A stretch of 64,000 bases of DNA from Desulfobacterales bacterium (GCA_030066785.1 JASJAZ010000006.1:3504-67503); one strand, 5' to 3'. Counted from the first letter of the stretch, positions 577 through 20,644 are shown. Made by a program: numbers and translations. Notes: generated by a model from the sequence alone, not told the origin.

Positions 577-2529
577 TCAGGCATCCTCAGCATTTTCAGG
601 TTGGGCCGGTCGCTCAATCGCCGGCACCAAATGTGGCGGGGATACTTTACGAACCGCGTCGTATTCGGGGGGACAGGCCACGACACATTCGCCGCATTTA
701 ACGCATAGTTGCTGATCAATGCCTTTTTTACGGGTACTGGTGGTAAAAACCGCGTTGGTGGGACAGCAGCCCACACAGGCATCGCATCCCCGGGCGCACT
801 TGTCCAAATCGATATAATAGGCAATTAAGGGGCGGCACACCAGTCCCGGGCAGCGACCTTCTTTGAGGTGCGCATCGTAATCTTCTTTAAAATACCGAAT
901 CGAGGTGAGTATCGGATTCGGCGCCGTTTTCCCCAATCCACACAGCGAGCCCTTTTTTATATCCAGGCTTAAATCCTGTAATCGCTGCAAATCATCATCC
1001 TGTCCTTCGCCCTTGGTGATGCGTTCAAGAATATCCAACAAATGGCGGGTACCGATGCGGCAAAATGTACATTTGCCGCAAGATTCATTTTGGGTAAAAT
1101 CTAAAAAATAGCGCGACACATCCGCCACGCAAGTATCTTCATCCATGACCACCATACCACCGGAACCCATCATGGCGCCGGCTTGGGTTAGAGAATCAAA
1201 ATCAATCGGGGTATCCAAAAACGCTGCCGGCAGGCACCCCCCCGAGGGTCCCCCGATCTGTACGGCCTTAAATGCTTTCTGATTGGGTATGCCCCCGCAA
1301 ATATCAAAAATGAGCTCGCGCAGCGTCACCCCCATGGGAATTTCCACCAAGCCGGCATGGACCACATCGCCAACCACCGAAAATATGGCGGTTCCTGGAC
1401 TTTCTTCCGTGCCGATGCTCCGAAACCAGGAGTAACCTTTCTCAATGATTGGCGGCACGCAGGCCAGCGTTTTCACATTATTGATCACGGTGGGTTGGCC
1501 CTTGAGGCCGTTGACCACCGGATAGGGTGGCCGGTGTTGCGGCATCCCCCGATAGCCTTCGATGGAGCGAATCATTCCGGTTTCTTCACCACAAACAAAA
1601 GCGCCGGAACCCTGAAATAGTTTTATTCTAAAGTTAAAGTCGGTTTCAAAAATATGGCGGCCCAGAATCCCCATGGTTTCCGCCTGAGCGATGGCGCGTG
1701 TCATTATTTTAACAGCCAGAGGATATTCGGCCCGCACATAGATTATTCCCTGATGTGCGCCCACCGCCCGTGCACATATGGCCATGCCTTCCAAAACTTG
1801 GTGGGGATTGCTTTCTATAATGGTTCGATCCATGTATGCACCCGGATCGCCTTCATCGGCATTACAAATGACGACTTTTTCGAGGCTCTCCGCCTCACGA
1901 GCCAGCGCCCATTTGCGTCCCGTGGAAAATCCGGCACCACCCCGTCCCCGCAGGCCGGCATGCTGGATTGCAGCCACTATGTCTTCCGGAGCCATTTGCA
2001 GTGCTTGCGCCAATCCGCTATATCCCCCGCTGACTAAATAATCATCTATTTCCTCTGGATTGATGTGACCGCATTTTTCCATTACCACCCGCACTTCCTG
2101 GTTGAAACGGTCAAACTCGGTTACCGATGGAATCATTTCATTGGTTTCCATGGCACCGTAGATATGTTCGAAGCAGGGGTCACCTTCGATTAAAAACTGC
2201 CGCACCAGCATTTTGGCTTTGCCGGCCGTTACGTTATGGTAGAATATCGGTGCAAATCCTGAATCCGGGTGATCAATAATAACCACCGGTTCGGCGTAAC
2301 AATGCCCAATACATCCCACTGTATAAATTTGCGCTTCCACCCTCCGTTCCGCCAGTGCCTGTTCAAATGTCTGCTTGGTCTCAATGGCCCCGGCTGCGAT
2401 GCCGCAGGTGGCCATGCCGATGGTGATCTTGGGAACCGCGCCATCGGTATCTGCGGTTTTACGCTGGTCGGCTTGTTCCCGAATCCTTTGAAAAACCGCT
2501 TTTAATGCTTGGTGATTGGCTACCGTCAT
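577..2529 (-). CDS. NuoF/HydB-type NAD(P)H-binding flavoprotein subunit with an N-terminal thioredoxin-like 2Fe-2S domain and a C-terminal 2x[4Fe-4S] ferredoxin domain
   Basis: 650-aa ORF. Motifs GLRGRGGAGFSTGRKW (FMN/NADH site), ESCGKCTFCR (N3 cluster) and a C-terminal CxxCxxCxxxCP pair. It overlaps the upstream NuoE-like gene by 4 nt. Confidence 0.9.
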   Translation of the reverse strand: MTVANHQALKAVFQRIREQADQRKTADTDGAVPKITIGMATCGIAAGAIETKQTFEQALAERRVEAQIYTVGCIGHCYAEPVVIIDHPDSGFAPIFYHNVTAGKAKMLVRQFLIEGDPCFEHIYGAMETNEMIPSVTEFDRFNQEVRVVMEKCGHINPEEIDDYLVSGGYSGLAQALQMAPEDIVAAIQHAGLRGRGGAGFSTGRKWALAREAESLEKVVICNADEGDPGAYMDRTIIESNPHQVLEGMAICARAVGAHQGIIYVRAEYPLAVKIMTRAIAQAETMGILGRHIFETDFNFRIKLFQGSGAFVCGEETGMIRSIEGYRGMPQHRPPYPVVNGLKGQPTVINNVKTLACVPPIIEKGYSWFRSIGTEESPGTAIFSVVGDVVHAGLVEIPMGVTLRELIFDICGGIPNQKAFKAVQIGGPSGGCLPAAFLDTPIDFDSLTQAGAMMGSGGMVVMDEDTCVADVSRYFLDFTQNESCGKCTFCRIGTRHLLDILERITKGEGQDDDLQRLQDLSLDIKKGSLCGLGKTAPNPILTSIRYFKEDYDAHLKEGRCPGLVCRPLIAYYIDLDKCARGCDACVGCCPTNAVFTTSTRKKGIDQQLCVKCGECVVACPPEYDAVRKVSPPHLVPAIERPAQPENAEDA

Positions 2530-3047
2530 TTTTCGGACTTCTGTCTGGCCTCCATTTCCTTTTCCACTTGTATTCGTGTAAAAATACCTTCTACCTTGCT
2601 GGGCGCCATGTTGCCATGCACCGATTCACCTAACAAAGCCACCGGCGCAAGGGCACAACAACCCACACACGCAACCCGCTCAATACTGAACTCGCGATCA
2701 GGTGTGGTTTCGCCCTCTTTGATTTCCAGTTTGCGCTCAAAATTTTCAAGGATAATATCGGCCCCTTTCACGTGGCAGGCCGTTCCCAGGCAAACTTTAA
2801 CCGGATACTTACCCGGTGGATTAAACCGAAATTGATTGTAAAAGCTTGCCACACCGTAAACTTCCGCCGGTGCTAGATTAAAATGGGCTGCGACCAATGC
2901 AATTGATTGATAAGGGATATAGGCCAACCTTGCTTGAATGTATTGTAACACCGGAATCAGTCGGCTCCGATCCCGCTTTGATTCAGACAAATATTGCTGA
3001 ATATCGGCCAGGATCGCTTTTTCTTCAGACGTCAGCACATCGTTCAT
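2526..3047 (-). CDS. NuoE/HydC-type 2Fe-2S thioredoxin-like ferredoxin subunit
   Basis: The ORF contains VCLGTACHVKGA...VACVGCCALAP, the NuoE 2Fe-2S motif. I placed the start at MNDVLT (ATG 3047). The track start at 3092 is a TTG and is an alternative. Confidence 0.8.
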   Translation of the reverse strand: MNDVLTSEEKAILADIQQYLSESKRDRSRLIPVLQYIQARLAYIPYQSIALVAAHFNLAPAEVYGVASFYNQFRFNPPGKYPVKVCLGTACHVKGADIILENFERKLEIKEGETTPDREFSIERVACVGCCALAPVALLGESVHGNMAPSKVEGIFTRIQVEKEMEARQKSEK

Positions 3048-3140
3048 TGACAAAGCCTTTGGGAAAATACAGCATGATGTTTTCCAAACCAAATTACGGG
3101 TACGAGGTCTGATGGCATGGTTGCGATATCACAAGCAAAA

Positions 3141-8784: not shown

Positions 8785-9741
8785 TTAATCGACTTCGGGT
8801 CTTGGCAGCACACCGGCTTGCTCAGCAATCTGTGGCACTTTGTGCTCCCATTCAATGGCCATTAGATGCACTCCGGCCACGCCTTGCATTTCTTTGAATT
8901 CTTCGATCTGTTCACAGGCGATTTTGATGCCTTCTTCCGCCACCTTGCCTTTGCCGGCGCCCTGCAGACGCTTGATAAGGTCTTCCGGTACATCCATTCC
9001 TGGGACCTTGCTTTGCATATATTTGGCCATACCAACACTCTTCATGGGCGTTACCCCTGCGAGAATGTATGCTTTTTCGGACAATCCCATATCGTTGGCC
9101 TGTTTAACCCAGGTTCTAAAACGTTCCATATTATAGATACATTGCGTCTGGATGAAATCCACACCCGCCTCAATCTTTTTGGCCAGCCGATGCACACGCC
9201 ATTCATAGGGCTCCGCAAAAGGATTGGCGGCTGCACCAATAAAAATCTTGGGCGGATCTTCAATCTCGGCGCCACCTAAAAATTGGCCCTCATCGCGCAT
9301 CCTTTTCACCATACCGATCAATTGCATGGAGTCGATATCAAATACCCCCTTGGCTTGAGGATGGTCACCAAATTGCTGGTGATCTCCGGAAAGACACAGC
9401 ATGTTGCGAATACCAAGCGCATAAGCGCCCAATATATCGGCCTGCATGGCCAGTCGATTGCGATCCCGGCATACCATTTGAAAATTCGGCTCCAGGCCCT
9501 CCTGCACCAAAATGAACGATGCGGCCCAGCTGGCCATTCGAACCACGGCGGTCTGATTGTCGGTAATATTGACGGCATCCACCATGCCTTTGAGATGCGA
9601 TGCTTTTTCGGTTACCTCTTTGACCGTGGTTCCGCGCGGGGGACCCAGTTCGCCTGTAAAGGCAAAATGGCCTGCACGCAATACTTTTTCTAAATTGCTA
9701 CCCGACTTATAGCCGTTCTGTTCTGTACTCATATCCGTCAC
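8785..9741 (-). CDS. metF: Methylenetetrahydrofolate reductase catalytic subunit (acetogen/SRB MetF type)
   Basis: 318-aa MTHFR TIM-barrel sequence (FAFTGELGPPRG...NITDNQTAVVRMAS...). It lies directly downstream of a MetV-type gene. Confidence 0.9.
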   Translation of the reverse strand: MTDMSTEQNGYKSGSNLEKVLRAGHFAFTGELGPPRGTTVKEVTEKASHLKGMVDAVNITDNQTAVVRMASWAASFILVQEGLEPNFQMVCRDRNRLAMQADILGAYALGIRNMLCLSGDHQQFGDHPQAKGVFDIDSMQLIGMVKRMRDEGQFLGGAEIEDPPKIFIGAAANPFAEPYEWRVHRLAKKIEAGVDFIQTQCIYNMERFRTWVKQANDMGLSEKAYILAGVTPMKSVGMAKYMQSKVPGMDVPEDLIKRLQGAGKGKVAEEGIKIACEQIEEFKEMQGVAGVHLMAIEWEHKVPQIAEQAGVLPRPEVD

Positions 9742-9808
9742 CTTCTTTAAAAATCAGTTATCATGGTTAAAAGCAGTTTGGGCAATCAACCATTTACACG
9801 GAAAAAAA

Positions 9809-10483
9809 TCATTCCTCTTCTTCCGGCTTTTTGTAGCCGGGTTGAATTAAGGTTCGCGGTACTTGATCACACCACGTACTGGGCGCCTTAATGCGTTTAA
9901 TGTTATCCAGGCGGTCCTGCGCCGACAGCCGTTCATGGATCAGGTACCAGGCACACGGTTGATCCTGGCTGATTTCGCATTTGCCCTGGTTGGTGCCACC
10001 ACAAGGTCCATTGTAAAGGCCTTTGGCACACATGGTTACCGGACAGATACCGCCGGTCCATCCCAACACGCAGCTCTGGCAGGATCGACAGCGTTCCTCA
10101 TACCAACCCACCGCCTGGTTGACGGCCAGTCCCGAGGTATCCACTGCCGGCAGAACCGGCGTTTCCGGGAATCGTTCCGCTAAAAACTGGATGCCGACAC
10201 CGCAGGCCATGGAAATGAGGGCATCGTAATCCTTTACCATATCATCCAGTTCGGCCAGATACTCGCGGTCACACTGGCGCTCCACGGTATAGGCCCCCAA
10301 TTCGATGGGATCATTATCAAGTTTGCGGGCCATGTCGATTTCGGCGTTTAAGACCGCCACTTCCTTCTCGCCGCCGGCCAGACAAACCGAGACGCAGGTA
10401 CCGCAGCCCACGTTTAGAACTTTCTTATAGCCTTTGAGCATATCTTTGATTTCTTCAAAAGGCTTGCGCTTAGCAACTATCAT
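9809..10483 (-). CDS. metV: Methylene-THF reductase small Cys-rich subunit (MTHFR_C / MetV type)
   Basis: 224 aa, Cys-rich (CGTCVSVC...CRSCQSCVLGWTGGICPVTMCAKGLYNGPCGG), matching the MetV zinc/Fe-S subunit pattern. It is adjacent to metF. Confidence 0.85.
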   Translation of the reverse strand: MIVAKRKPFEEIKDMLKGYKKVLNVGCGTCVSVCLAGGEKEVAVLNAEIDMARKLDNDPIELGAYTVERQCDREYLAELDDMVKDYDALISMACGVGIQFLAERFPETPVLPAVDTSGLAVNQAVGWYEERCRSCQSCVLGWTGGICPVTMCAKGLYNGPCGGTNQGKCEISQDQPCAWYLIHERLSAQDRLDNIKRIKAPSTWCDQVPRTLIQPGYKKPEEEE

Positions 10484-10542
10484 TTTTCCTCCTGTTACAC
10501 CGCTCAGCTACCAAATAGATTGTTGATTAACCATCAACTATG

Positions 10543-11865
10543 CTAGAAATTTGAACTTTCCGGATGAAAGACATCCACATCTTTGAGATCATCGCCCAGA
10601 TATTCGCGTTCATTCGGACCGAGGATGCCCATGGATAAACAAATTAAGGTCCAAAGGTGGACCGTGTTCCAGGCGTGATCACGCTGGTCGCTCAGGTCGT
10701 GGATCTGCGCGTGGCAATTATGGCATGGCGTAATGCAGTAACCGGCGCCTGTATTAAGGACCTGTTCGGCCTTAAGTTTACCGTATTCCCGACGTGCTTC
10801 CGGATAGCCTGATTGCAAGAAACCACCGCCGCCGCCGCAGCAGTAATTGTTTGATTTGTTCGGAGCCATATCGATGAAGTTCTCTTTACCGACCACCGCT
10901 TCAACCACGTAGCGCAGGTCATCCGCCACCGGATCGCCAAACGATTTACGCACCAGTTGGCAGGGGTCTTGAACGGTGAATTTAACCTTGCGGTCCTTAT
11001 TCCAGTCAGAGCTGACCTTGAGCTTGCCTTCTCGAATCCACTGGGCATAGTACTGAATGATGCTTTTGATTTCAAATTTGTAATCGAGGTTGAATTTTTG
11101 CTGTCCGAACCGGACAGCGAACAGTTCGTGCCCTCATTCAGTATTGAGCCAGACCTTGCAGCCCAGATCCTCCACCGCCTTTTGTTTAACCTCGACAATA
11201 TGCTTCCAGCTTTCCTCATCGGCCATGAACATGCAGTAGTTCTCGGCCGCCCAACCCTTGGTACCGTAAGTCCAGTCGGCGCCTACCGCGTGTAAAATTT
11301 TCCACAAAGGCACCATTTCATCCGGCTCGGTCACCGGTTCACGTGAATTCTGATTCAAGAAAAACTCAGCCCCTTTTTTGTTAACCGGCGCCTGCATATC
11401 TTTAAATTCCGGCTGGGCCTCCTGGTATTCCTCCAACACATCTTCGACCACAAACTGAAAATCTTCCTCGGTGGCGCCCATGGCACTGCAGGTATCGCTG
11501 CGCAGGGCCATATCACAAGAGCCCACAATGCCCTTGGGCCGTTCTTCCCGCGGCCAGCTTTGGCGGGCATAGAAAACCAGCTGGGGGATGTTGATCTTCA
11601 TGGGACACACATACACGCAGCGGGTACACATGCTGCACATCCACACCCAGGGGGTACTGGTGATCTCCTCATCCATCCCCAGGGCGGCCATGCGCAGAAA
11701 TTTGCGCGGGTCCATGCCCTCCAAACCAGTGGCCGGGCATCCCGAGGAACACGCGCCGCATGTCAGACAAAGATTCAGATTCCCGCCTTCGGGAAGCAAA
11801 TCCTTCACCTTGTCGATAAACATGCTTTTCTTTTTGCCTCCTAATTTAATTGCTTCATCTGCCAT
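10543..11865 (-). CDS. Fused HdrC/HdrB-like (HdrD/GlpC-type) Fe-S oxidoreductase; predicted selenoprotein with an in-frame TGA at 11134-11136
   Basis: Track ORFs 11134-11910 and 10543-10953 are in the same frame and joined by one TGA: ...KVWLNTE-U-GHELFAVRFGQQKF...VQDPCQLVRKSFGDPV. The N-terminus has 2x CxxCxxCxxxCP. The C-terminus has a CCG domain (NYCCGGGGG...PCHNCH). The U sits at the second Cys position of the first CCG-type motif (C-x31-E-U-G). The start is at MADEAIK (ATG 11865), preceded by TAAGGAG. Confidence 0.8.
11101..11117 (-). promoter_or_regulatory. Candidate SECIS hairpin for the HdrCB-like UGA
   Basis: mRNA CUGUCCG-GUU-CGGACAG, a perfect 7-bp stem that starts 16 nt after the UGA. 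Confidence 0.55.
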
Positions 11866-11878
11866 AATTGACTCCTTA

Positions 11879-12325
11879 TTAGGCTGCCGCCTTCTTTTTA
11901 TTGGTTGCATCTTTATTTTGATTCAACGGATTAGGACCGAGTTCTTTGATGTGCTCGGTCATTTCCTTGGCGTATTGGGCAAAGGTCGGGCCCTCGCCGG
12001 AAGACAGGTTGTACATGCGAACCCGGTCGCCTTCAATGCCGATCTCGTCCAACAACTCCCGAACGTGATTGACTCTTTCCCGGCATCGCAAATTGCCCTC
12101 ATTATAATGACACGCGCCTTCCAAACAACCAACGCAATAGGCACCATCGGCGCCCTTTTGAATGGCTCGTAAAAGATGAATCACATCGACCTTGCCGGTG
12201 CAAGGCACCCGAATTATTTTCACATTGGCCGGATAATCCAGTCGCATGGAACCTGCCAGGTCCGCAGCGGAGTAACCTCAATATTCACAACAAAATGCGA
12301 TGATGGTTGGTTCAAAATCTGACAT
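11879..12325 (-). CDS. mvhD: MvhD-type (methyl-viologen-reducing hydrogenase delta) 2Fe-2S protein; predicted selenoprotein with TGA at 12278-12280
   Basis: Hand translation upstream of track ORF 11879-12247 stays in frame: MSDFEPTIIAFCCEY-U-GYSAADLAGSMRLDYPANVKIIRVPCTGKVD... The paralogue at 15364-16113 reads [17 protein letters not shown] at this point, so U aligns with a Cys. The ATG at 12325 overlaps the hdrA stop by 1 nt (TAATG). Confidence 0.8.
12249..12263 (-). promoter_or_regulatory. Candidate SECIS hairpin for the mvhD (11879-12325) UGA
   Basis: mRNA GGACC-UGGCA-GGUUC, a 5-bp stem including one G.U pair, starting 14 nt after the UGA. This is the weakest of the five hairpins. Confidence 0.35.
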
Positions 12326-15300
12326 TACATACCTCCAGCAAGAAGGGCATCAATTTTACAAATCAGCTGTTCGTCTTCATAGAAGCTCAGCCCGATTACC
12401 TGCCGCGGACAAACCGCCGTACATACGCCGCATCCGTGACAAAGCGCCTCGTTAATTTCAATTTCTTTTTTTTCGGTATTAAACTCCGGTACGCCAAACG
12501 GGCAGGAGCGGACACACGTCAGGCATTTCACACAATGCTCCACATCCACTTTGGCAGTAATGGCCGAAAGTTTGATGGCATCCTGGGCCAAAAAGGTTGT
12601 GGCCCGTGATGCGGCGGCCTGGGCCTGGGCAATGGTCTCCGAGATGAGCTTGGGCCCATGGGCCGTTCCGCAAAGAAAAACCCCTTCGCTGGGCATATCC
12701 ACCGGACGCAATTTGACATGCGCTTCAATGAAAAAGCCTTCCGGGTTGCGGTTTAATTTCATGATATTGCTCATCTCTTGGGTATCAGTGGCGGTCATAC
12801 CGGCACTAAGCGCCAATAAATCGGCCCTGATTTCGACATCCTGCTGCAAAATATGATCCTTGACAGTCACCAGCATGCCGTCGGAAGCCGCTTTGACAGC
12901 CGGTGGCGTATCTTTGTCAAACCGAATGAAGATAACCCCTTGCTTACGGGCTTCCATGTAGTAGTCTTCCAGCAATCCATAGGTACGGATATCCCGGTAC
13001 AGCACAAACACTTGGGCATCCGGGTTCTGTTTCCTGATCAGCAGCGCATTTTTTACGGCATTCTGGCAGCAGATGCGCGAGCAGTTTTCATTTTCTTCGT
13101 TGCGGGAGCCAACGCATTGAATCATAACAACGCTGGTCAGTTCCGCAGCACCCTTATTTTCCAACATGTCACCCAATTCCACCTGGGTGACCACCCGTTC
13201 ATCTTCGCCATATAAAAACTCTTGAGGCTGATATTCGGTGGCACCCGTGGCCACCAAAAAAACACCATGCTCAATGCGATGGGCTGCTTTATCGGCGCCC
13301 ACTTCGATCTCCGTGGCAAAGCTGCCTTTAAACCCTTCGAAACCGGCAATGCGTGCATCGGTAAATACTTGAATGTTTTCATCGTCAGTTACATCAGATA
13401 CTAGCTTCGCTACGTAAGCCGGAATATCATCACCCTCAATAGTATGGTGCAGTTTGCGGGCAAACCCGCCCAACTCGGCATTTTTTTCAACCACAATGGC
13501 GTTAAAACCTTGCCGGCTGAGCCCCAAGGCCGCATTCATCCCGGCAACGCCCCCGCCGATGACCAGCGCCTGTTTGTTGATGGGCACAACCTTTTCGTTA
13601 AGCGTATGCAGGGTGGATGCCCGGGCAACCGCCATGCGCACCAAATCCTTGGCTTTTTGGGTTGCAATCTCTGGATTATTGGAATGAATCCATGAATTCT
13701 GATTGCGGATATTGGCCATTTCAAACAGATATTTGTTGAGGCCGCAGGCCTCCAGCGTCTCCATGAACATCGCTTCATGAGTTTTGGGGCTGCAAGACGC
13801 CACCACTACCCGGTTCAATTCAAGTTCCTTGATCTTTTCTTTAATCAGATCCTGTGTGTCCTGGCTGCAGGTAAACAGGTTCTCATCGGCATAGGCCACA
13901 TTCGGCAGATTTTCGGCGTATTTACGAACTTCGGGAACATCCACAATCCCGCCGATATTGATGCCACAATTGCAAACAAACACACCGATACGCGGATCTT
14001 CCTGGCTGACATCCCTTTGTTCAGGAAGTTCAATTTTGGCGATGTCGGTTCCCCGCGCCGCAGCCAACTCGGCCCCCGCAGCACACGCCGCTGCGCTGGC
14101 TTCGGTAACCGAACTGGGGATATCCTTGGGGCCCTGCAGCACACCGCAGGTGTAGATACCGGCACGTGAGGTCGTCACCGGTGCAAAAGAATTTGTCTGC
14201 ACAAAGTTGTAATGATTTAATTCAATGCCCAAGCGTTCGGCCAGCTCGGCCCCATCCGGCTGAATCTGAAGCCCGACGGACAAAACCACCATATTGAATA
14301 CTTCTTCCTGCATCGCACCGGTTTCATCTGCGAATTTGACAACCAAATCGCCGGTATCGGGAACTTCCGTGATGGTATGAATGCGGGCTTTCACAAAACG
14401 CACGCCGTCTTTATCTTTGGCCCGGTTATAGTACTTTTCATAATCCTTGCCAAAGGTACGCATGTCCATATTAAAAATGGCGCAGTCCAAATCTCCATGG
14501 GCATGCTCTTTGGCAATCATGGCTTCCTTGACCGCATACATACAGCACACTGAAGAGCAATAGCCATTGCCGGTGCGGTTGGCATCACGGGATCCCACGC
14601 ACTGCAGCCAAGCAATTTTCTGCGGTTCTTCGCGATCCAACGGCCGCATGAGATGTCCCAGATAAGGACCGGAAGCGCTTAGAATTCGCTCAAATTCTTC
14701 ACTGGTCACCACATTGGGATATTTACCGTAGCCCAAATAGTCGAGGCTGGAGGGGTCATAACCCCGACTGCCGGCTGACAGTATCACAGAGCCGACATTG
14801 AGCGAGCTTTCGCGCACCTTATCATCGTATTCGACCGCCTTGGCGATACACATATTTTCACAAAGTCCGCAGCCGATACAGGTTTCCGTATCGATGGCAA
14901 ACGCAAGGGGTACCGCTTGGGCATATTCGATAAAGGTGGCCCGGCGGTCATCCAGCTTTAAATTGTATTGATTTACAGCGGTTACAGGGCAATGCAGCGC
15001 ACATTCACCGCATCCCGTGCATTTGACGGGATCAATGTATCGCGGACGGTTGCTCAAGGTAACATCAAAATTTCCGGGACTACCTTCCACACTTTTGATG
15101 TCGCTGCAAGTAATCAGTTCTATGTTAGGGTGCCGGCCGACCTCGACCAGTTTAGGTGAGATCACTCACATGGCACAATCATTGGTCGGGAACGTTTTGT
15201 CCAGTCGGGACATCATCCCGCCAATGGTCGGCGACTTATCAACTAAATATACTTTGTAATCCGAATTGGCCAAGTCCAGCGAAGCTTGCATGCCGGCGAT

Positions 15301-15354
15301 ACCGGCACCTACGACCATCACTGAACCGCTTTTCTTGGTACTTTCAGCTCCCAT
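12325..15354 (-). CDS. hdrA: Long (about 1009 aa) tandem-type HdrA-like flavoprotein/Fe-S subunit; predicted selenoprotein with TGA at 15166-15168
   Basis: Track ORFs 15166-15354 and 12325-15165 are in frame across one TGA: ...[30 protein letters not shown]. There are two GxGxxG FAD motifs ([22 protein letters not shown]), several ferredoxin CxxCxxCxxxCP motifs and CVGSRD...[19 protein letters not shown] precedes ATG 15354. Confidence 0.85.
15133..15150 (-). promoter_or_regulatory. Candidate SECIS hairpin for the hdrA (12325-15354) UGA
   Basis: mRNA CUGGUC-GAGGUC-GGCCGG, a 6-bp stem with two G.U pairs and GGU in the loop, starting 15 nt after the UGA. The element is identical in the paralogue. 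Confidence 0.45.
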
Positions 15355-15363
15355 GTGATCTCC

Positions 15364-16113
15364 TTATAAAGCTGCAAAAACCGGTTTACAGGCTTCCATT
15401 CCTTTGAATTCAACCATATTGGTCTTTTCCATATCAGCCAGCAGATAAGAAATCTGCCTTAAATTCAATCCAACTTTTTGGCTGATGTCGCGCGGGGCGG
15501 CACAGCCCTCTTGAATGGCTTGATAAATTAGATTCTTTTGATATTCACGCTCTAATACTTGATCCAAAACCGTTTCAAAACTGTGTTGGTCCCATTGGCG
15601 GCCATACACATCGCCTTTGGTGGTAATTTCGACTTCCTTGCCCACCATCCAACGAATCGTTTCGCCCGAAACTGTCATTTCAGCGGCTTCCAATTGGAGG
15701 GCATTGGCTTGGCAGTCAAATTTACCCTGGTTTTGGATGGAATTGACGGTTGCATTGACAACCTCCACAAACCGTTGGGCTTCTGCTGATGATACCCACG
15801 CCAAGTGGAGCCGCTCTGCACCGATACCGGCAATATCCAGTAATTTTTGGGTTAGCCGGATTTTTTTATCAGCTTGGACATTACCTTCCAGGTAATGGCA
15901 GTCACCGAAATGTCACCCTGCTACCAGGGCGCCATCACAACCTTCTTTAAAGGCTTTGATAATAAATAGGGGATCGATGCGTCCGGAACACATGACGCGT
16001 ACGGTGCGCATGTTGGGTGGATACTGCAACCGGGAGACACCGGCCAGATCGGCACCGGCATAAGCGCACCAGTTGCACAAAAACGCCGCAATTTTTGGTT
16101 CAAACTCTGCCAT
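15364..16113 (-). CDS. mvhD: MvhD-type protein with a C-terminal extension of about 130 aa; predicted selenoprotein with TGA at 15913-15915
   Basis: Track ORFs 15913-16113 and 15364-15804 join in frame: ...[60 protein letters not shown]... The U replaces the Cys in the position corresponding to CVGCLEGACHY of the paralogue (the G-C-H-x-G-x-C-H-Y type motif). Confidence 0.85.
15879..15897 (-). promoter_or_regulatory. Candidate SECIS hairpin for the mvhD (15364-16113) UGA
   Basis: mRNA CAUUACC-UGGAA-GGUAAUG, a perfect 7-bp stem starting 15 nt after the UGA. Confidence 0.55.
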
Positions 16114-16180
16114 AATACTACCTTATCAATTTGATTTAATGGTAAATGACGTTAATCAGTCAAAACGTTCATCGATTACT

Positions 16181-19100
16181 TTAGGCAATGGCACACACAG
16201 ATGCCACAATCTGCTCATCTTTAAAATGCAGCATGTCGATGGCTTTTTTCGGGCAAGATGAGGCACACAACCCGCAACCCTTGCAGGAAGCAGGAATGTT
16301 CTTGGCCCGATAACCCTTGCCCTCGACTTCTTCAACTTCAATGGCACCAAATGGGCAGACGCTGGCACATAGTCCACAACCGATACAGGTTTCCGCATCG
16401 ACCTGGGAGACCAGCGGTGAAATTTGAATATTGGCTTTGGCCAGTACCGTGGCGGCTCGGCTGGAAGCCGCCAGCGCCTGGGCAATGCTTTCATCCAGTG
16501 ACTTGGGAAAATGCGCTAAGCCACAGACAAAAATACCATCGGATGCAAAGTCGACCGGTCGCAACTTCGCATGGGCTTCCATGAAGAAGTTTTCTTCGTT
16601 GACCGGCAGCTTGTACAGTTCGGCCAGTTGGCTGTTATCCGACGGCACGATGGCCGTTGCCAAATTCAAAAGATCCGCGCTGATGATGACCTCTTTTTGC
16701 AAAATCGGATCAAACACCTGAATTTCCAAACCATCACCAGCCTCTTTAACTACCGGCTTGCGGTCCAGCGTGTAGCGAATGAAAATCACACCTAGCTGTC
16801 GTGCTTGTTTGTACAGCACTTCCCGTTCCGCATAGGTGCGGATATCGCGATACAGCACAAAAACATCTTTATCAGGTGACTGTTTCTTAATTTGAATGGC
16901 TTGCAGCACTGATCCCGTACAGCAGATCCGTGAGCAATACGGTCGCTGGTCATCACGTGAGCCGACACACTGAATAAACACAACGCTCTGCGCATCCTTC
17001 AACTTAGCAGGATCATTTTCCAGGTCATGCCACTTAGTGACACAAGGGCTTTGGCCAAACAGATATTCATCCGGTTCATAGGCTTGTCCGCCGGTGGCAA
17101 TAATAGTTGCGCCATGTTTGACCGTGACCTCACCCTTGCCATTTTTTACCTGAGTTTCGAAATTGCCGACAAAGCCCGAAGCACCTACCACTTCACTGTC
17201 TAACAATACCTTAACATCGGTGTGTTTTTCGACTTGATCGACCAAGTCCGTTAAAAAGGGTGGCACGTCACGGCCGCTCCATGTCTGATGCACATCTTTC
17301 GCGGAACCGCCCAATTCAGATGATTTTTCCACGATCGTGGTGGGAAAACCCTGATCGGCCAAACTCAGCGCGGCCGTCATACCAGCCACGCCGCCACCAA
17401 CTACCAGAGCAGATTTATCGACATCCACCGACAAATCCGGAATCGGTTCCAGCAGCGATGCGCGGGAAACGGCCATACGCACCAGGTCTTTGGCTTTCTC
17501 CGTAGCATCGGCCTTGCTCTTGGAATGCACCCAGGTGCATTGGTTGCGGATATTGGCCATCTCAAATAGATAGGCATTGACCCCCGCGTTGCGGATGGTT
17601 TCCTGAAACAACGGTTCATGGGTACGTGGGGTGCAGGCTGCGACAACAACTCGATTAAGATTCTGTTCCTTAATCACTTCAACCATCTTTTCCTGGGTGT
17701 CCTGGCTGCATGAAAACAGGTTCTCTTCCACATAGGCGACATTCGGCAGGGTTCGCGCATATTCAGCAATGGCCGGAACGTCTGCAATACCGCCGATATT
17801 CACACCGCAATTACACACAAAGACGCCTACCCGGGCGTCCTGGTCGATTACTTCAAGCTCTTTGGGAAACACCTTATCTTTGACCATGGTGCCGCGGTGA
17901 TCCGACAAGGAAATACCGGCCCGACACGCCGCAGCACTGGCTTCCATGACCGCCTGGGGAATGTCTTTGCAGCCCTGCATCACACCCGCCACATAAATAC
18001 CCGGCCGGGAAGTATTAACCGGTGCAGTGTCATCGGTTTTGACGAAGTTATAATCGTTTAACTCGATATCAAGTGTTTGGGCCAAATCAATGGCTTGATC
18101 GGACGGCTCCATACCAACCGACAATACCACCATATCAAACTGCTCGATATTGCGTTGGCCTTCATCAGAGGCGTACTCTAAAGCCAAAGTTCCACTGTCA
18201 TCAGCTTGTGTAATGGAATGTACTTTGGAGCGAATAAATCGAACGCCTTCATCCTTGGCGCGATTGTAATATTTCTCAAACTCTTTGCCATGGGTTCGCA
18301 TGTCCATGAAAAATACCGTGGCTTCGAACTGTTCGCCAATATGCTCTTTGGCGATCAGGGCTTCCTTGATGGCATACATGCAGCAGACCGAGGAACAGTA
18401 TTCATTGTCACAGCGGTTCAAGTCCCGCGAACCCACACATTGCAACCACGCGATCTTGGTTGGTTCCTGTTCATCCGATGGTCGCAGCACATGACCACCA
18501 GTGGGGCCGCTGGCGGACAAGATGCGTTCAAACTCCATGCTGGTCATAACATTGGGCAGTTTGGCGTGCTGATAATTATCTAAAGATGATGGATCGAACG
18601 GTTTGTATCCCGCCGTGGCAATGACCGCACCCACGTTTAGATTCAGCGTTTCTTGCTTTTGATCAAAATCAATTGCATCGGTAGGACAATATTTTAAACA
18701 GGCCCCACATTTGCCTTTTTTCAAATAAATACATCTTTCGGGATCGATCACGTATTTCAGGGGCACCGCCTGGGCATAGGGAATATATGCCGCCTTGCGT
18801 TTGGAAATGGCTTCATTGAATTCATCGGCGGTTTTAGCAGGACATTTCTCCTCACAGGCCCCACAGGCAATACATTTTTCCATATCCACATAGCGGGCCG
18901 ATTTTTTGATGGATACCGTAAAGTTCCCTTCTTCGCCCTGAATATCGGTAACTTCAGAAAGGGTATGCAACTCGATGTTTAGGTGCCGGCCGACCTCGAC
19001 CAGTTTGGGTGAGATAATTCACATGGAACAGTCGTTGGTGGGAAAGGTCTTGTCAAGCTGGGCCATGGCACCACCGATGGCCGGCGATTTTTCCACCAGA

Positions 19101-19207
19101 TGGACATAATAGCCTGAATCGGCAAGATCGAGAGCAGCCTGCATGCCGGCGATGCCAGCACCGACCACCATAACCGATCCGCTTTGGGATGATTTTTTTG
19201 AACTCAT
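16181..19207 (-). CDS. hdrA: Second long (about 1008 aa) tandem-type HdrA-like subunit; predicted selenoprotein with TGA at 19019-19021
   Basis: Track ORFs 19019-19207 and 16181-18970 are in frame across one TGA when the intervening codons are read: ...[38 protein letters not shown]... The domain order matches the paralogue at 12325-15354. RBS CAGGAG precedes ATG 19207. Confidence 0.85.
18986..19003 (-). promoter_or_regulatory. Candidate SECIS hairpin for the hdrA (16181-19207) UGA
   Basis: Same CUGGUC-GAGGUC-GGCCGG element as in the paralogue, starting 15 nt after the UGA. Confidence 0.45.
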
Positions 19208-19334
19208 TCTAACTCCTGTAGTTCGGTTATAAATTTGGATAAAACAAAGCTATCAACGCAAGCGATGTCAGTAATTTCAGCCGCTGAAAATAGATGCCAT
19301 CAGCACAGGACCCCGAAAAAAGTCCGAAGGGCGA

Positions 19335-19363
19335 AATATCTCATAGAATGAGCCCTCCGTCAA
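19335..19363 (-). promoter_or_regulatory. Possible sigma-70-type promoter upstream of the hdr/mvh/met cluster
   Basis: Minus strand reads TTGACG, 17 nt, GATATT, about 125 nt upstream of the hdrA ATG at 19207. This is a pattern match only. Confidence 0.25.
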
Positions 19364-19594
19364 GGCATTAATGACCGGTATTGGTACCAAAAGGGTCCAG
19401 GATTTTAAAAAATTGTTTCCAAAAGAAAGGCATAAATGCAGAGCAGTCACTATTGAGGACTAAACGAGGTAACTTTTACCAATATGGAAAATATAAAAGC
19501 TTATTGAAAGGATGCTTGACCATTATAAGATATGTTTCAATGAGCCTTCTGAGGATGCTGGCAAGCGCTTATAAAATCGAATGAGCATTGGTGG

Positions 19595-20644
19595 TTAGGC
19601 CGCTTTTTCATCCGTCGCCGTCTCAGTCGTGCTGTTGTTGCCCCACTTGTACTTGGCGTATTTGAGATAGCCAAATACATTATTGAGACGGGGGTCAACC
19701 ACATCTTCAATCGGCATAACCGTGCCAGGCAGCAGCGGAATTAAGTAGTCTCCTAACGCCTTGGCGCCGCCGCCGGTGAGAATAATATTATCGATGTCCC
19801 AGTCATCAGACCATAGCCGTTCGATATCGTTGGCAATGAGCTCAGCCGAATGCGAAAAAACCTTTGTCTTGATATCGTCAAGTGCATATTCCTGCCCACG
19901 GATCTTAATGCGACCCGATTCAACCGCTTTATAAAGCCGATATAACTCCAAGTTGACTCCGGTTTCTTCACGCAGTTTTTGAGCAATGCCGCTGAAACTT
20001 TTCGAAATTCCGTTATCCATCGTGGCGCTTCCCCGATCAACAAAACGCATCTGATCCATAATCGTGCAGTCCACTGTCCGAAAACCGATATCAACAACCC
20101 CAACTTTCTGTTTCGTCAAATCTTTATTGGCAATTTTCCCGTTATCATCCATGAGGATATTGAAGACGCTTCCCAGGGGTTGGGGCATCATGCGCACCTT
20201 ATTAATGTTTATCCGGCGGGTCACCTGACTGCCATCGGCTTTATGAAAGGTAATTTCGTGTTGACCCATTAGTATCTTGGTGAAGTTCGTGTAAAATTTC
20301 TTTAGATAGCCAACCGGCAGGCCCGATACAACATTGAGAGGAATATATTTTTCAGGAAAACTGCCAGCGATGGTAAGGGCCAGGACCTTGACGAATTTGG
20401 ATATTAGTTTTTCCTGATTCAAGGTATACTGTTGAATATTGGATTGTAACTCCGCAAAATCACCAACAAAATAAGATTTATCGTCAATGGTAACATGCAG
20501 GTTATCTTTAATTGAATCCTTGGCAATTTTTGTGCGGAATTTGATATCGGTAGCCTCCCCGAGCAGCGACTTAAAAACGATTGCCTCTTTGCCGTCAGTG
20601 GCTTTGGTAAAACCAAACCCAACATCAATGCCTAAAACTTCCAT
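19595..20644 (-). CDS. ParM/Alp-family actin-like ATPase (ALP_N-type N-terminus); orphan with no ParR-like partner visible
   Basis: 349 aa. The N-terminal phosphate-1 motif VLGIDVGFGFTKA, a second motif VGVVDIGFRTVD and a distal ILTGGGA match the actin/Hsp70 fold as in plasmid-segregation actins. A strong GGAGG RBS is present. Confidence 0.7.
   Translation of the reverse strand: MEVLGIDVGFGFTKATDGKEAIVFKSLLGEATDIKFRTKIAKDSIKDNLHVTIDDKSYFVGDFAELQSNIQQYTLNQEKLISKFVKVLALTIAGSFPEKYIPLNVVSGLPVGYLKKFYTNFTKILMGQHEITFHKADGSQVTRRININKVRMMPQPLGSVFNILMDDNGKIANKDLTKQKVGVVDIGFRTVDCTIMDQMRFVDRGSATMDNGISKSFSGIAQKLREETGVNLELYRLYKAVESGRIKIRGQEYALDDIKTKVFSHSAELIANDIERLWSDDWDIDNIILTGGGAKALGDYLIPLLPGTVMPIEDVVDPRLNNVFGYLKYAKYKWGNNSTTETATDEKAA

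Follow-up and report, generated by a model that had tools for sequence, protein, structure and literature searches.

The MvhD/VhuD family has a CxxU motif and up to two selenocysteine (Sec, U) residues, according to a 2026 review (PMC13188914). In archaeal VhuD these residues occupy 'two distinct Sec positions' that lie about 50 codons apart (PMC4989117), and the VhuD protein of M. maripaludis binds a [2Fe-2S] cluster (PMC13518236). Here we describe an operon in a 64,000-nucleotide stretch of DNA (GCA_030066785.1, JASJAZ010000006.1:3504-67503; the window) whose host is an uncultured Desulfobacterales bacterium. The operon encodes two MvhD paralogues, mvhD-short and mvhD-long, each with one in-frame TGA codon. 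The two genes add new members to a selenoprotein family that is already known, and their Sec residues stand at sites known from that family. VhuD has two classical Sec sites, of which, as judged from the alignments, mvhD-short uses residue 16 and mvhD-long residue 67.

The window MvhDs are like M. maripaludis VhuD in their family, their fold, their Sec columns 16 and 67, and the possession of an HdrA partner with a C-x-x-U motif. VhuD, however, carries both Sec residues in one polypeptide and is served by a single archaeal Sec insertion sequence (SECIS) in the 3' untranslated region, whereas the window proteins have one Sec each and an individual bacterial-type hairpin inside the open reading frame (ORF). 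VhuD is also part of the vhuDGAU [NiFeSe] hydrogenase operon, while the window operon lacks hydrogenase genes and ends in metV-metF.

Another relative is BamF from the class II benzoyl-CoA reductase of Geobacter metallireducens, an MvhD homologue with a winged-helix extension of more than 100 residues that mvhD-long shares. BamF pairs with BamE, a fused HdrA of about 1000 amino acids, and the window HdrA-like proteins are of this length too, with an architecture that recalls the 'fused HdrA dimer' of BamE. The Sec sites differ. BamF has Sec at the cluster-adjacent cysteine (Sec19, equivalent to column 16), whereas mvhD-long has Cys16 and Sec67, and the Sec16 protein of the window is mvhD-short, which lacks the extension. 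A second Rossmann domain reported for BamF is not seen in the predicted model of P0004, a protein of the mvhD-long type. BamE has Cys59-Cys62 where the window HdrA-like proteins have C-x-x-U. Finally, BamF is encoded with bamB and bamC, the genes of a tungsten AOR-type reductase; the window operon has neither and carries metV and metF instead.

The MetFV-HdrABC-MvhD system of Moorella thermoacetica (Mock et al. 2014, cited in PMC5736913 and PMC6085437) resembles the window operon in having its hdr and mvhD genes in a cluster that also holds metV and metF. The two systems also share a predicted Hdr-type flavin-based handling of electrons for the reduction or oxidation of methylene-tetrahydrofolate (methylene-THF) in the Wood-Ljungdahl pathway. 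The Moorella system is of hexameric composition, and its operon has a single HdrA, a single MvhD, and HdrB and HdrC encoded by separate genes. The window operon instead has five Sec codons, two permuted HdrA-like proteins of about 1000 amino acids, two MvhDs and a C-B fusion of the HdrD type. Multiple hdrA/hdrL-mvhD pairs are known from Desulfobacterium autotrophicum HRM2, also a member of the Desulfobacterales. In that genome mvhD1, 2, 3 and 5 are Sec-containing, and several of the MvhD and HdrA proteins carry a selenoprotein annotation; the paper gives no Sec positions (PMC2702500).

Sec sites of the two MvhD paralogues

An earlier note, made from the window sequence alone, had observed that Sec falls at different cysteine positions of the same motif set in the two proteins, and translation confirms this. 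The mvhD-short gene (11879-12325, minus strand, 148 amino acids, VhuD-like FlpD) reads MSDFEPTIIAFCCEY*GYSAADLAG...VGCLEGACHY. Its TGA (12278-12280, minus strand) is codon 16, in the motif FCCEY-U-GY and the wider context CCEY-U-GYSAADLAGSMR, and the later motif VGCLEGACHY retains Cys. The mvhD-long gene (15364-16113, minus strand, 249 amino acids) reads FLCNWCAY ... VAG-U-HFGDCHY. Here the C-N-W-C-A-Y motif keeps its Cys and the TGA (15913-15915, minus strand) is codon 67. The conserved positions are therefore Cys13, Sec16, Cys42, Cys67 and Cys72 in mvhD-short, and Cys13, Cys16, Cys42, Sec67 and Cys72 in mvhD-long.

Both proteins match the Pfam FlpD family (PF02662) end to end, with E values of about 1e-48 and scores of 164 and 165 bits against a cut-off of 22.3 bits. 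The matches cover profile positions 1-123 and 1-121. Both also align without gaps to the structures 5odc_D, 7bkb_F, 8rvu_F, 9sw2_D and 9sfi_K. Conservation of the individual columns was assessed in a genome sample, obtained by scanning one genome per species with the mvhD-long protein. For the 80 loci found, all six frames were translated, TGA being rendered as U, and the products were aligned to the FlpD profile. In every full FlpD domain of these loci, columns 13, 16, 42, 67 and 72 are Cys or Sec. Thus U16 and U67 both stand on invariant Cys columns, and the reading of the earlier note that Sec occupies two sites of one motif set holds in gap-free alignments.

Its further impression that such a pattern had not been described does not hold in kind. 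Archaeal VhuD has its classical pair of Sec sites at columns 16 and 67 (PMC4989117), and the 9sfi_K sequence has X at both (FVCYQ-X-GY and VAG-X-KPNEC). Column 16 is, in addition, already the Sec19 site of BamF (bioRxiv 10.64898/2026.04.10.717634).

The two proteins are only distantly alike (37.7% identical over 130 residues). The best match to mvhD-short in the PDB is M. maripaludis VhuD (9sfi_K, E 1.2e-40), which is closer than any PDB MvhD. By these comparisons mvhD-short and mvhD-long are old paralogues from different FlpD subfamilies, the short one nearest to VhuD and the long one nearest to MvhD. Because the paralogues are old, belong to different subfamilies and have unlike hairpins downstream of their TGAs, their Sec sites are independent, lineage-stable states, as the earlier note had considered in suggesting separate Cys-to-Sec conversions.

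Membership of mvhD-short in the MvhD family is assigned by these sequence matches, and mvhD-long is predicted to have the MvhD fold from a model of P0004, an orthologue that is 72% identical and has Cys in place of Sec (pLDDT 88). The model combines this fold with a helical linker and a winged-helix C-terminus (helices at 134-201, followed by a helix-turn-helix and a beta hairpin). It matches 5odc_D, 8rvu_F and 7bkb_F with target TM values of 0.81-0.85 and E values of about 1e-12. In mvhD-long itself the FlpD domain spans residues 1-130 and precedes the linker and the winged helix, and Pfam HTH_24 is matched weakly. This protein keeps His68 and Asp71 (H-F-G-D), whereas mvhD-short has L-E-G-A in their place (Leu68/Ala71).

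Evidence for decoding of TGA as Sec

The placement of both TGA codons is conserved throughout the order. There are 28 loci of the orthologous Desulfobacterales operon, the window included, that hold both genes, and in all of them the long MvhD is Cys16/Sec67 and the short MvhD is Sec16/Cys67. Further loci in which only one of the genes lies on a short contig show the same TGA at the same column. Carriers include metagenome-assembled genomes named Desulfosudis oleivorans, Desulfatirhabdium butyrativorans, Ca. Desulfatibia and an Olavius Delta-4 symbiont. Across the genome sample, TGA is present at column 67 in all genes of the mvhD-long type (49/49) and at column 16 in all genes of the mvhD-short subfamily (30/30, window included). 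The reading frame and the amino acids on both sides of the TGA are kept at 59-80% identity in more than 30 genomes.

Bacterial SECIS elements are stem-loops situated shortly downstream of the UGA, with a G in the apical loop (bSECISearch criteria). All five TGA codons of the operon are followed, inside the ORF, by a hairpin of 6-8 base pairs whose G-rich loop of 3-4 nucleotides starts 20-23 nucleotides after the UGA. The SECIS-like hairpin of mvhD-short (12243-12269, minus strand) consists of the core GGACCU-GGC-AGGUUC and a lower stem, and its GGC loop begins 20 nucleotides past the UGA. That of mvhD-long (15879-15897, minus strand) is CAUUACCU-GGA-AGGUAAUG, in which the GGA loop begins at 23 nucleotides and the hairpin region codes for C-H-Y-L-E-G-N-V.

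Selection on these hairpins is visible in codon choice when the 49 Sec67 genes are compared with 90 Cys67 genes coding for the same residue. His73 is CAT in 48/48 Sec67 genes, while Cys67 genes are split evenly between CAT (45) and CAC (45). Tyr74 is TAC in 49/49 against 51 TAC and 36 TAT, and Gly77 is GGT in 49/49 against 15 GGT and 73 other Gly codons. Asn78 is AAT in 48/49 of the Sec67 genes, compared with 51 AAT and 38 AAC. Position 75 is Leu CTG in 49/49 Sec67 genes; the roughly 90 Cys67 genes mostly have other residues here, and Leu CTG occurs in only 5. Fisher p values for these biases lie between 3e-8 and 4e-24. In the same 49 Sec67 genes, the synonymous sites of codons 68-72 vary freely. 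The hairpin codons 73-78 are under synonymous selection only in genes that bear the TGA.

The Sec16 genes show the same freezing of codons, with two unlike hairpins in two clades and stems that are invariant within each clade. In all genes of the mvhD-short clade codons 21-25 are GCG GAC CUG GCA GGU. One locus, L085 (JGI Ga0568852_0001964), provides a natural control that links the freezing of stem codons to Sec67. Its mvhD-long orthologue (72% identical) has TGC at column 67, and its stem codons have drifted to TAT, GGC and AAC. The short partner at this locus still has TGA16, and both hdrA genes keep their TGAs. The L085 operon is also a variant in its layout, with no hdrD between mvhD-short and metV.

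Alternative readings of the TGA codons

Under one alternative, one or both TGAs would be true stops and the genes would be pseudogenes or encode split or truncated polypeptides. Public gene calls are of this kind. The window operon recurs in four independent NCBI assemblies (L081-L084) that code for an identical MetV, and the callers there truncate or split the same ORFs, giving an FlpD of 122 amino acids, an HdrA of 946, a long MvhD of 146 and an HdrD as two pieces of 243 and 128-136; a 66-amino-acid fragment is also called. The hairpin energies, taken alone, are unremarkable as well. A true stop is nevertheless very improbable. The truncated products would be without essential cluster cysteines, the protein sequence is conserved beyond the TGA as well as before it, and the downstream frame is kept in 27 further two-gene loci, so that the decayed gene copy envisaged in the earlier note was not found. 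In every case the TGA occupies an invariant Cys column, all five TGAs of this one operon stand on Cys columns, and synonymous freezing of the hairpin is limited to TGA-bearing genes. Chance and pseudogene formation are excluded because the same TGA column recurs, hairpin codons are frozen only together with the TGA, and the operon is present in four assemblies. More improbable still is an alternative genetic code in which TGA specifies a standard amino acid such as Trp or Gly. JGI translations of the close orthologues P0001 and P0008 do render the Sec67 TGA as Trp (VAG-W-HFGDCHY). However, TGA is an ordinary stop in the window, which has 39 stop-to-stop ORFs of 200 amino acids or more and uses TGA to end 12 of them, and this excludes such a code. 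In-frame TGAs in the operon occur only at Cys-aligned columns, each with a hairpin after it, and the close orthologues P0004, P0017 and P0018 have Cys, not Trp, at column 67. On the comparative evidence, both MvhD TGAs are judged to be genuine Sec codons. P0019 is another gene that is mis-annotated in public data.

Complementary placement in other loci

The pairing of Sec67 in one paralogue with Sec16 in the other could be a requirement, such that each MvhD carries one selenium and the two modules of a complex are specialized, for example for electron input and output, by carrying it at different positions. In the unbiased genome sample, 39 of the 40 Sec-using tandem pairs are indeed complementary, and every neighbouring HdrA has C-x-x-U. 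These pairs are of two kinds: 28 have the arrangement of the window, with a long Sec67 and a short Sec16 protein, and 11 have the reverse (short Sec67, long Sec16) in a second operon family from Syntrophobacteraceae and relatives that includes the isolate Desulfoferrobacter suflitae DRH4. In a rough neighbour-joining (NJ) tree, most Sec67 genes form one clade, with one outlier, and the Sec16 genes form two separate clades, each with its own hairpin. Since the 39 pairs fall into two operon clades in this tree, they amount to about two independent events. Other combinations also weigh against a required pairing. Sec67 is present in both partners at L024 in the genome sample and at L128 and L208 in a metagenome scan, which was keyed on the Sec67 hairpin and is biased towards Sec67. 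Cys67 accompanies Sec16 at L085, Sec67 accompanies a double-Sec partner at L122, L126, L170 and L185, and a Sec16 gene shares a contig with a double-Sec gene at L139. The tandem architecture also exists in an all-Cys form in archaea and WOR-3. An obligatory pairing is thus unlikely, and complementarity as a principle, which the earlier note had raised, is not upheld by the survey of U across columns that it had proposed, in which the 80 genome loci and the metagenome scan together contain all site combinations. The family has two hot spots for Sec, columns 16 and 67, which are independent of each other, and the window shows the combination that became fixed in its operon lineage.

Six bacterial-type double-Sec genes were recovered in the metagenome scan (starts: L122 4455; L126 8890; L129 389; L139 8807; L170 7310; L185 4925). 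These short MvhD genes read FLCTW-U-AYAAADLAG ... GG-U-HLGECHYL and have a separate in-ORF hairpin for each UGA. Most lie about 4-5 kb from a Sec67-only MvhD, and their nearest Cys homologues are bacterial. A stricter search of metagenome contigs with a double-Sec DNA pattern (UGA-GGN-TAY, 141-147 nucleotides, Sec67 hairpin) gave 0 matches; this pattern was too narrow, and the genes from the broader Sec67-hairpin scan carry UGA-GCN-TAY. A limited literature search found no description of double-Sec bacterial MvhDs. The residue after column 16 follows the type of gene: it is Gly17 in 52/52 Sec16 genes of the genome sample and in VhuD, Ala or Ser in Cys16 genes, and Ala17 in the double-Sec type.

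Two further arrangements were seen among the surveyed loci. A long MvhD with a short MvhD about 3.8 kb away, all-Cys and including an HdrA with C-x-x-C, is found in WOR-3 (L038, L040, L042, L047), Bathyarchaeia (L039) and other archaeal loci (L066, L067, L069, L080). In several archaeal loci the HdrA-like protein carries, at its C-terminus, a fused short FlpD that is of the CYQCGYN type and close to VhuD.

Selenium in the HdrA-like and HdrD-like partners

The HdrA-like proteins of the window contain a TrxR core (residues 11-378), an HdrA N-domain (452-617) and a C-terminal ferredoxin domain (828-1006). From this domain order, both are read as permuted, duplicated forms of HdrA. HdrA-like 1 (16181-19207, minus strand, about 1008 amino acids by translation) has its in-frame TGA at 19019-19021 (minus strand), corresponding to residue 63 in the motif C-S-M-U, with a downstream hairpin at 18986-19003 (minus strand). 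HdrA-like 2 (12325-15354, minus strand, 1009 amino acids by translation) has a TGA at 15166-15168 (minus strand), again residue 63, in C-A-M-U, and the hairpin downstream is at 15133-15150 (minus strand). In an alignment with M. maripaludis HdrA (9sfi_A), U63 of HdrA-like 2 stands opposite the X of Sec197, which is in a Cys-Sec pair between the A3 cluster and flavin adenine dinucleotide (FAD). The C-x-x-U of HdrA-like 1, its paralogue, corresponds to the same position.

HdrA-like genes beside Sec-containing MvhDs have C-x-x-U without exception (58/58 and 20/20), and those beside all-Cys MvhDs have C-x-x-C (17/17). The use of selenium is coordinated across the MvhD-HdrA interface, and in the loci surveyed an HdrA Sec always occurs with a Sec in the neighbouring MvhD.

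The fifth TGA of the operon (11134-11136, minus strand) is in the hdrD-like gene (10543-11865, minus strand, about 440 amino acids), which fuses an HdrC-type 4Fe-4S dicluster to an HdrB-type CCG domain. Its context, LNTE-U-GHELF, makes this a candidate selenoprotein, and the hairpin downstream (11100-11118, minus strand) has a z of -3.2, stronger than the other four. At least 12 orthologous loci retain the TGA, and L050 has Cys at this column.

Proposed roles of residues 16 and 67

Structural work bears on both columns. PMC13580544 lists as 'conserved additional cysteine residues' Cys202 and Cys205 of HdrA and Cys16 of MvhD, and places Asp71 and His68 of MvhD at an unknown ligand held by the Cys202/Cys205 pair. 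The preprint on class II benzoyl-CoA reductase (bioRxiv 10.64898/2026.04.10.717634) identifies the cluster-adjacent MvhD cysteine as Sec19 in BamF. Because Cys16 is 'additional' and BamF has Sec19 beside the cluster, residue 16 is, by analogy with these reports, a non-ligand, redox-active cysteine position next to the [2Fe-2S] cluster, between this cluster and the HdrA Cys-x-x-Cys/Sec pair with FAD.

Residue 67 would, by contrast, be a ligand of the cluster. A cluster needs four ligands, and the only invariant cysteines left to supply them are Cys 13, 42, 67 and 72, so conservation and ligand counting both point to this role. The M. maripaludis VhuD sequence (9sfi_K) contains no His, and besides its two Sec residues there are just three Cys. 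Given that this protein binds a cluster, and provided that the cluster has four Cys/Sec ligands, at least one of the two Sec residues must be bound to iron. It is tempting to go further and to regard Sec67 of mvhD-long and of more than 150 Sec67 homologues as a natural selenolate ligand of [2Fe-2S] and Sec16 as a cluster-adjacent, redox-active selenol, with the bacterial proteins dissecting the two roles that VhuD combines; this proposal is tentative and may well be wrong. A stronger version, in which the two HdrA-MvhD modules differ in function owing to selenium placement, is possible.

A model for the operon

We assign a probability of roughly 0.85 to the following interpretation: the two genes encode genuine FlpD/MvhD selenoproteins in a Moorella-type Hdr/MvhD-linked methylene-THF reductase operon, and the use of Sec sites is specific to the subfamily and does not reflect a required pairing. 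The assignment to this type of reductase is made because metV and metF are conserved after the operon. Two long HdrA-like proteins, two MvhDs and the HdrD-type fusion would assemble into an Hdr/MvhD-linked methylene-THF reductase. The MvhDs would serve as small [2Fe-2S] adaptors from which the flavin of a bifurcating, HdrA-type flavoprotein receives electrons one at a time. Each UGA would be decoded with the help of its in-ORF hairpin, as for bacterial SECIS elements read by SelB. In mvhD-short, an all-Cys cluster would have selenium nearby as a redox-active selenol. In mvhD-long, a Cys3Sec cluster would have a selenolate ligand on iron, next to the His68/Asp71 residues that approach the HdrA Cys pair. 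In both proteins selenium would thus be located at the MvhD-HdrA electron-entry interface, facing the C-x-x-U of HdrA. The Sec site of each paralogue would be a historically fixed state of its subfamily, with no obligatory complementary pairing.

Several observations count against parts of this interpretation. For four of the five hairpins, the two of the mvhD genes (z -0.2 and -0.7) among them, folding energies are no better than those of shuffled sequences (z -0.2 to -0.9), and only the hdrD hairpin stands out. An Rfam scan of positions 9000-20000 with E up to 10 returned no SECIS family and only a chance snoRNA match. Because hairpin energies are not significant and Rfam gives no match, the SECIS evidence is comparative and not thermodynamic. 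No selA, selB, selC, selD or tRNA-Sec gene is found within the 64-kb window. The sampled loci fall into few clades, so locus counts overstate the number of independent events. The ligand role of residue 67 derives from conservation and ligand counting and not from coordinates, the equation of BamF Sec19 with column 16 derives from the wording of two papers and not from an alignment of BamF, and the assignment of MvhD-HdrA partners is taken from gene order.

Operon organization and neighbouring genes

The operon is tightly packed and occupies 8.8-19.2 kb of the window on the minus strand, in the order hdrA-mvhD-hdrA-mvhD-hdrD-metV-metF, with five Sec codons. Each mvhD gene is directly downstream of an hdrA-like gene, and the start of mvhD-short overlaps the stop of hdrA-like 2. 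The metV gene (9809-10483, minus strand, 224 amino acids) encodes a methylene-THF reductase C-terminal domain protein (Pfam PF12225, E 4e-32), and metF (8785-9741, minus strand, 318 amino acids) encodes methylenetetrahydrofolate reductase (Pfam PF02219, E 4e-39). Neither has an in-frame TGA. Both follow the operon in nearly all orthologous loci, and their clustering with hdr genes is kept in more than 25 of them.

An actin-like gene (ALP_N / MreB-like_C, ParM-type; 19595-20644, minus strand) is located directly upstream of the operon. About 6 kb downstream, on the same strand, are a nuoF-like gene (HydB/BamH-like, 650 amino acids) and a nuoE-like gene (HydC/BamG-like) at 577-3092 (minus strand). 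These were considered as a BamGH-like partner and rejected, as orthologous loci do not keep them close to the operon. They are probably unrelated to it.

Implications for electron transfer

The Wood-Ljungdahl operon described here is widespread, and in public annotation each of its five selenoprotein genes is truncated, split or mistranslated. Relative to what is known of VhuD and BamF, the findings add modestly: paralogue-specific sites that are conserved, a link to Sec in HdrA, and single- and double-site forms in bacteria. They bear on the transfer of electrons from [2Fe-2S] to FAD, a step that the structural papers of 2026 leave unresolved while pointing to MvhD Cys16, the HdrA Cys pair and the His68/Asp71 loop. 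Evolution has repeatedly placed selenium at MvhD residue 16, at MvhD residue 67 and at the second Cys of the HdrA pair, the MvhD sites always together with HdrA Sec. This recurrence gives independent comparative support to the view that these residues take part in chemistry and have more than a structural role. For either role, the single-site variants in relatives of cultivable sulfate reducers are simpler than the double-Sec VhuD. If Sec67 is a ligand and Sec16 a selenol, these bacterial proteins would separate two roles of selenium that are merged in VhuD.

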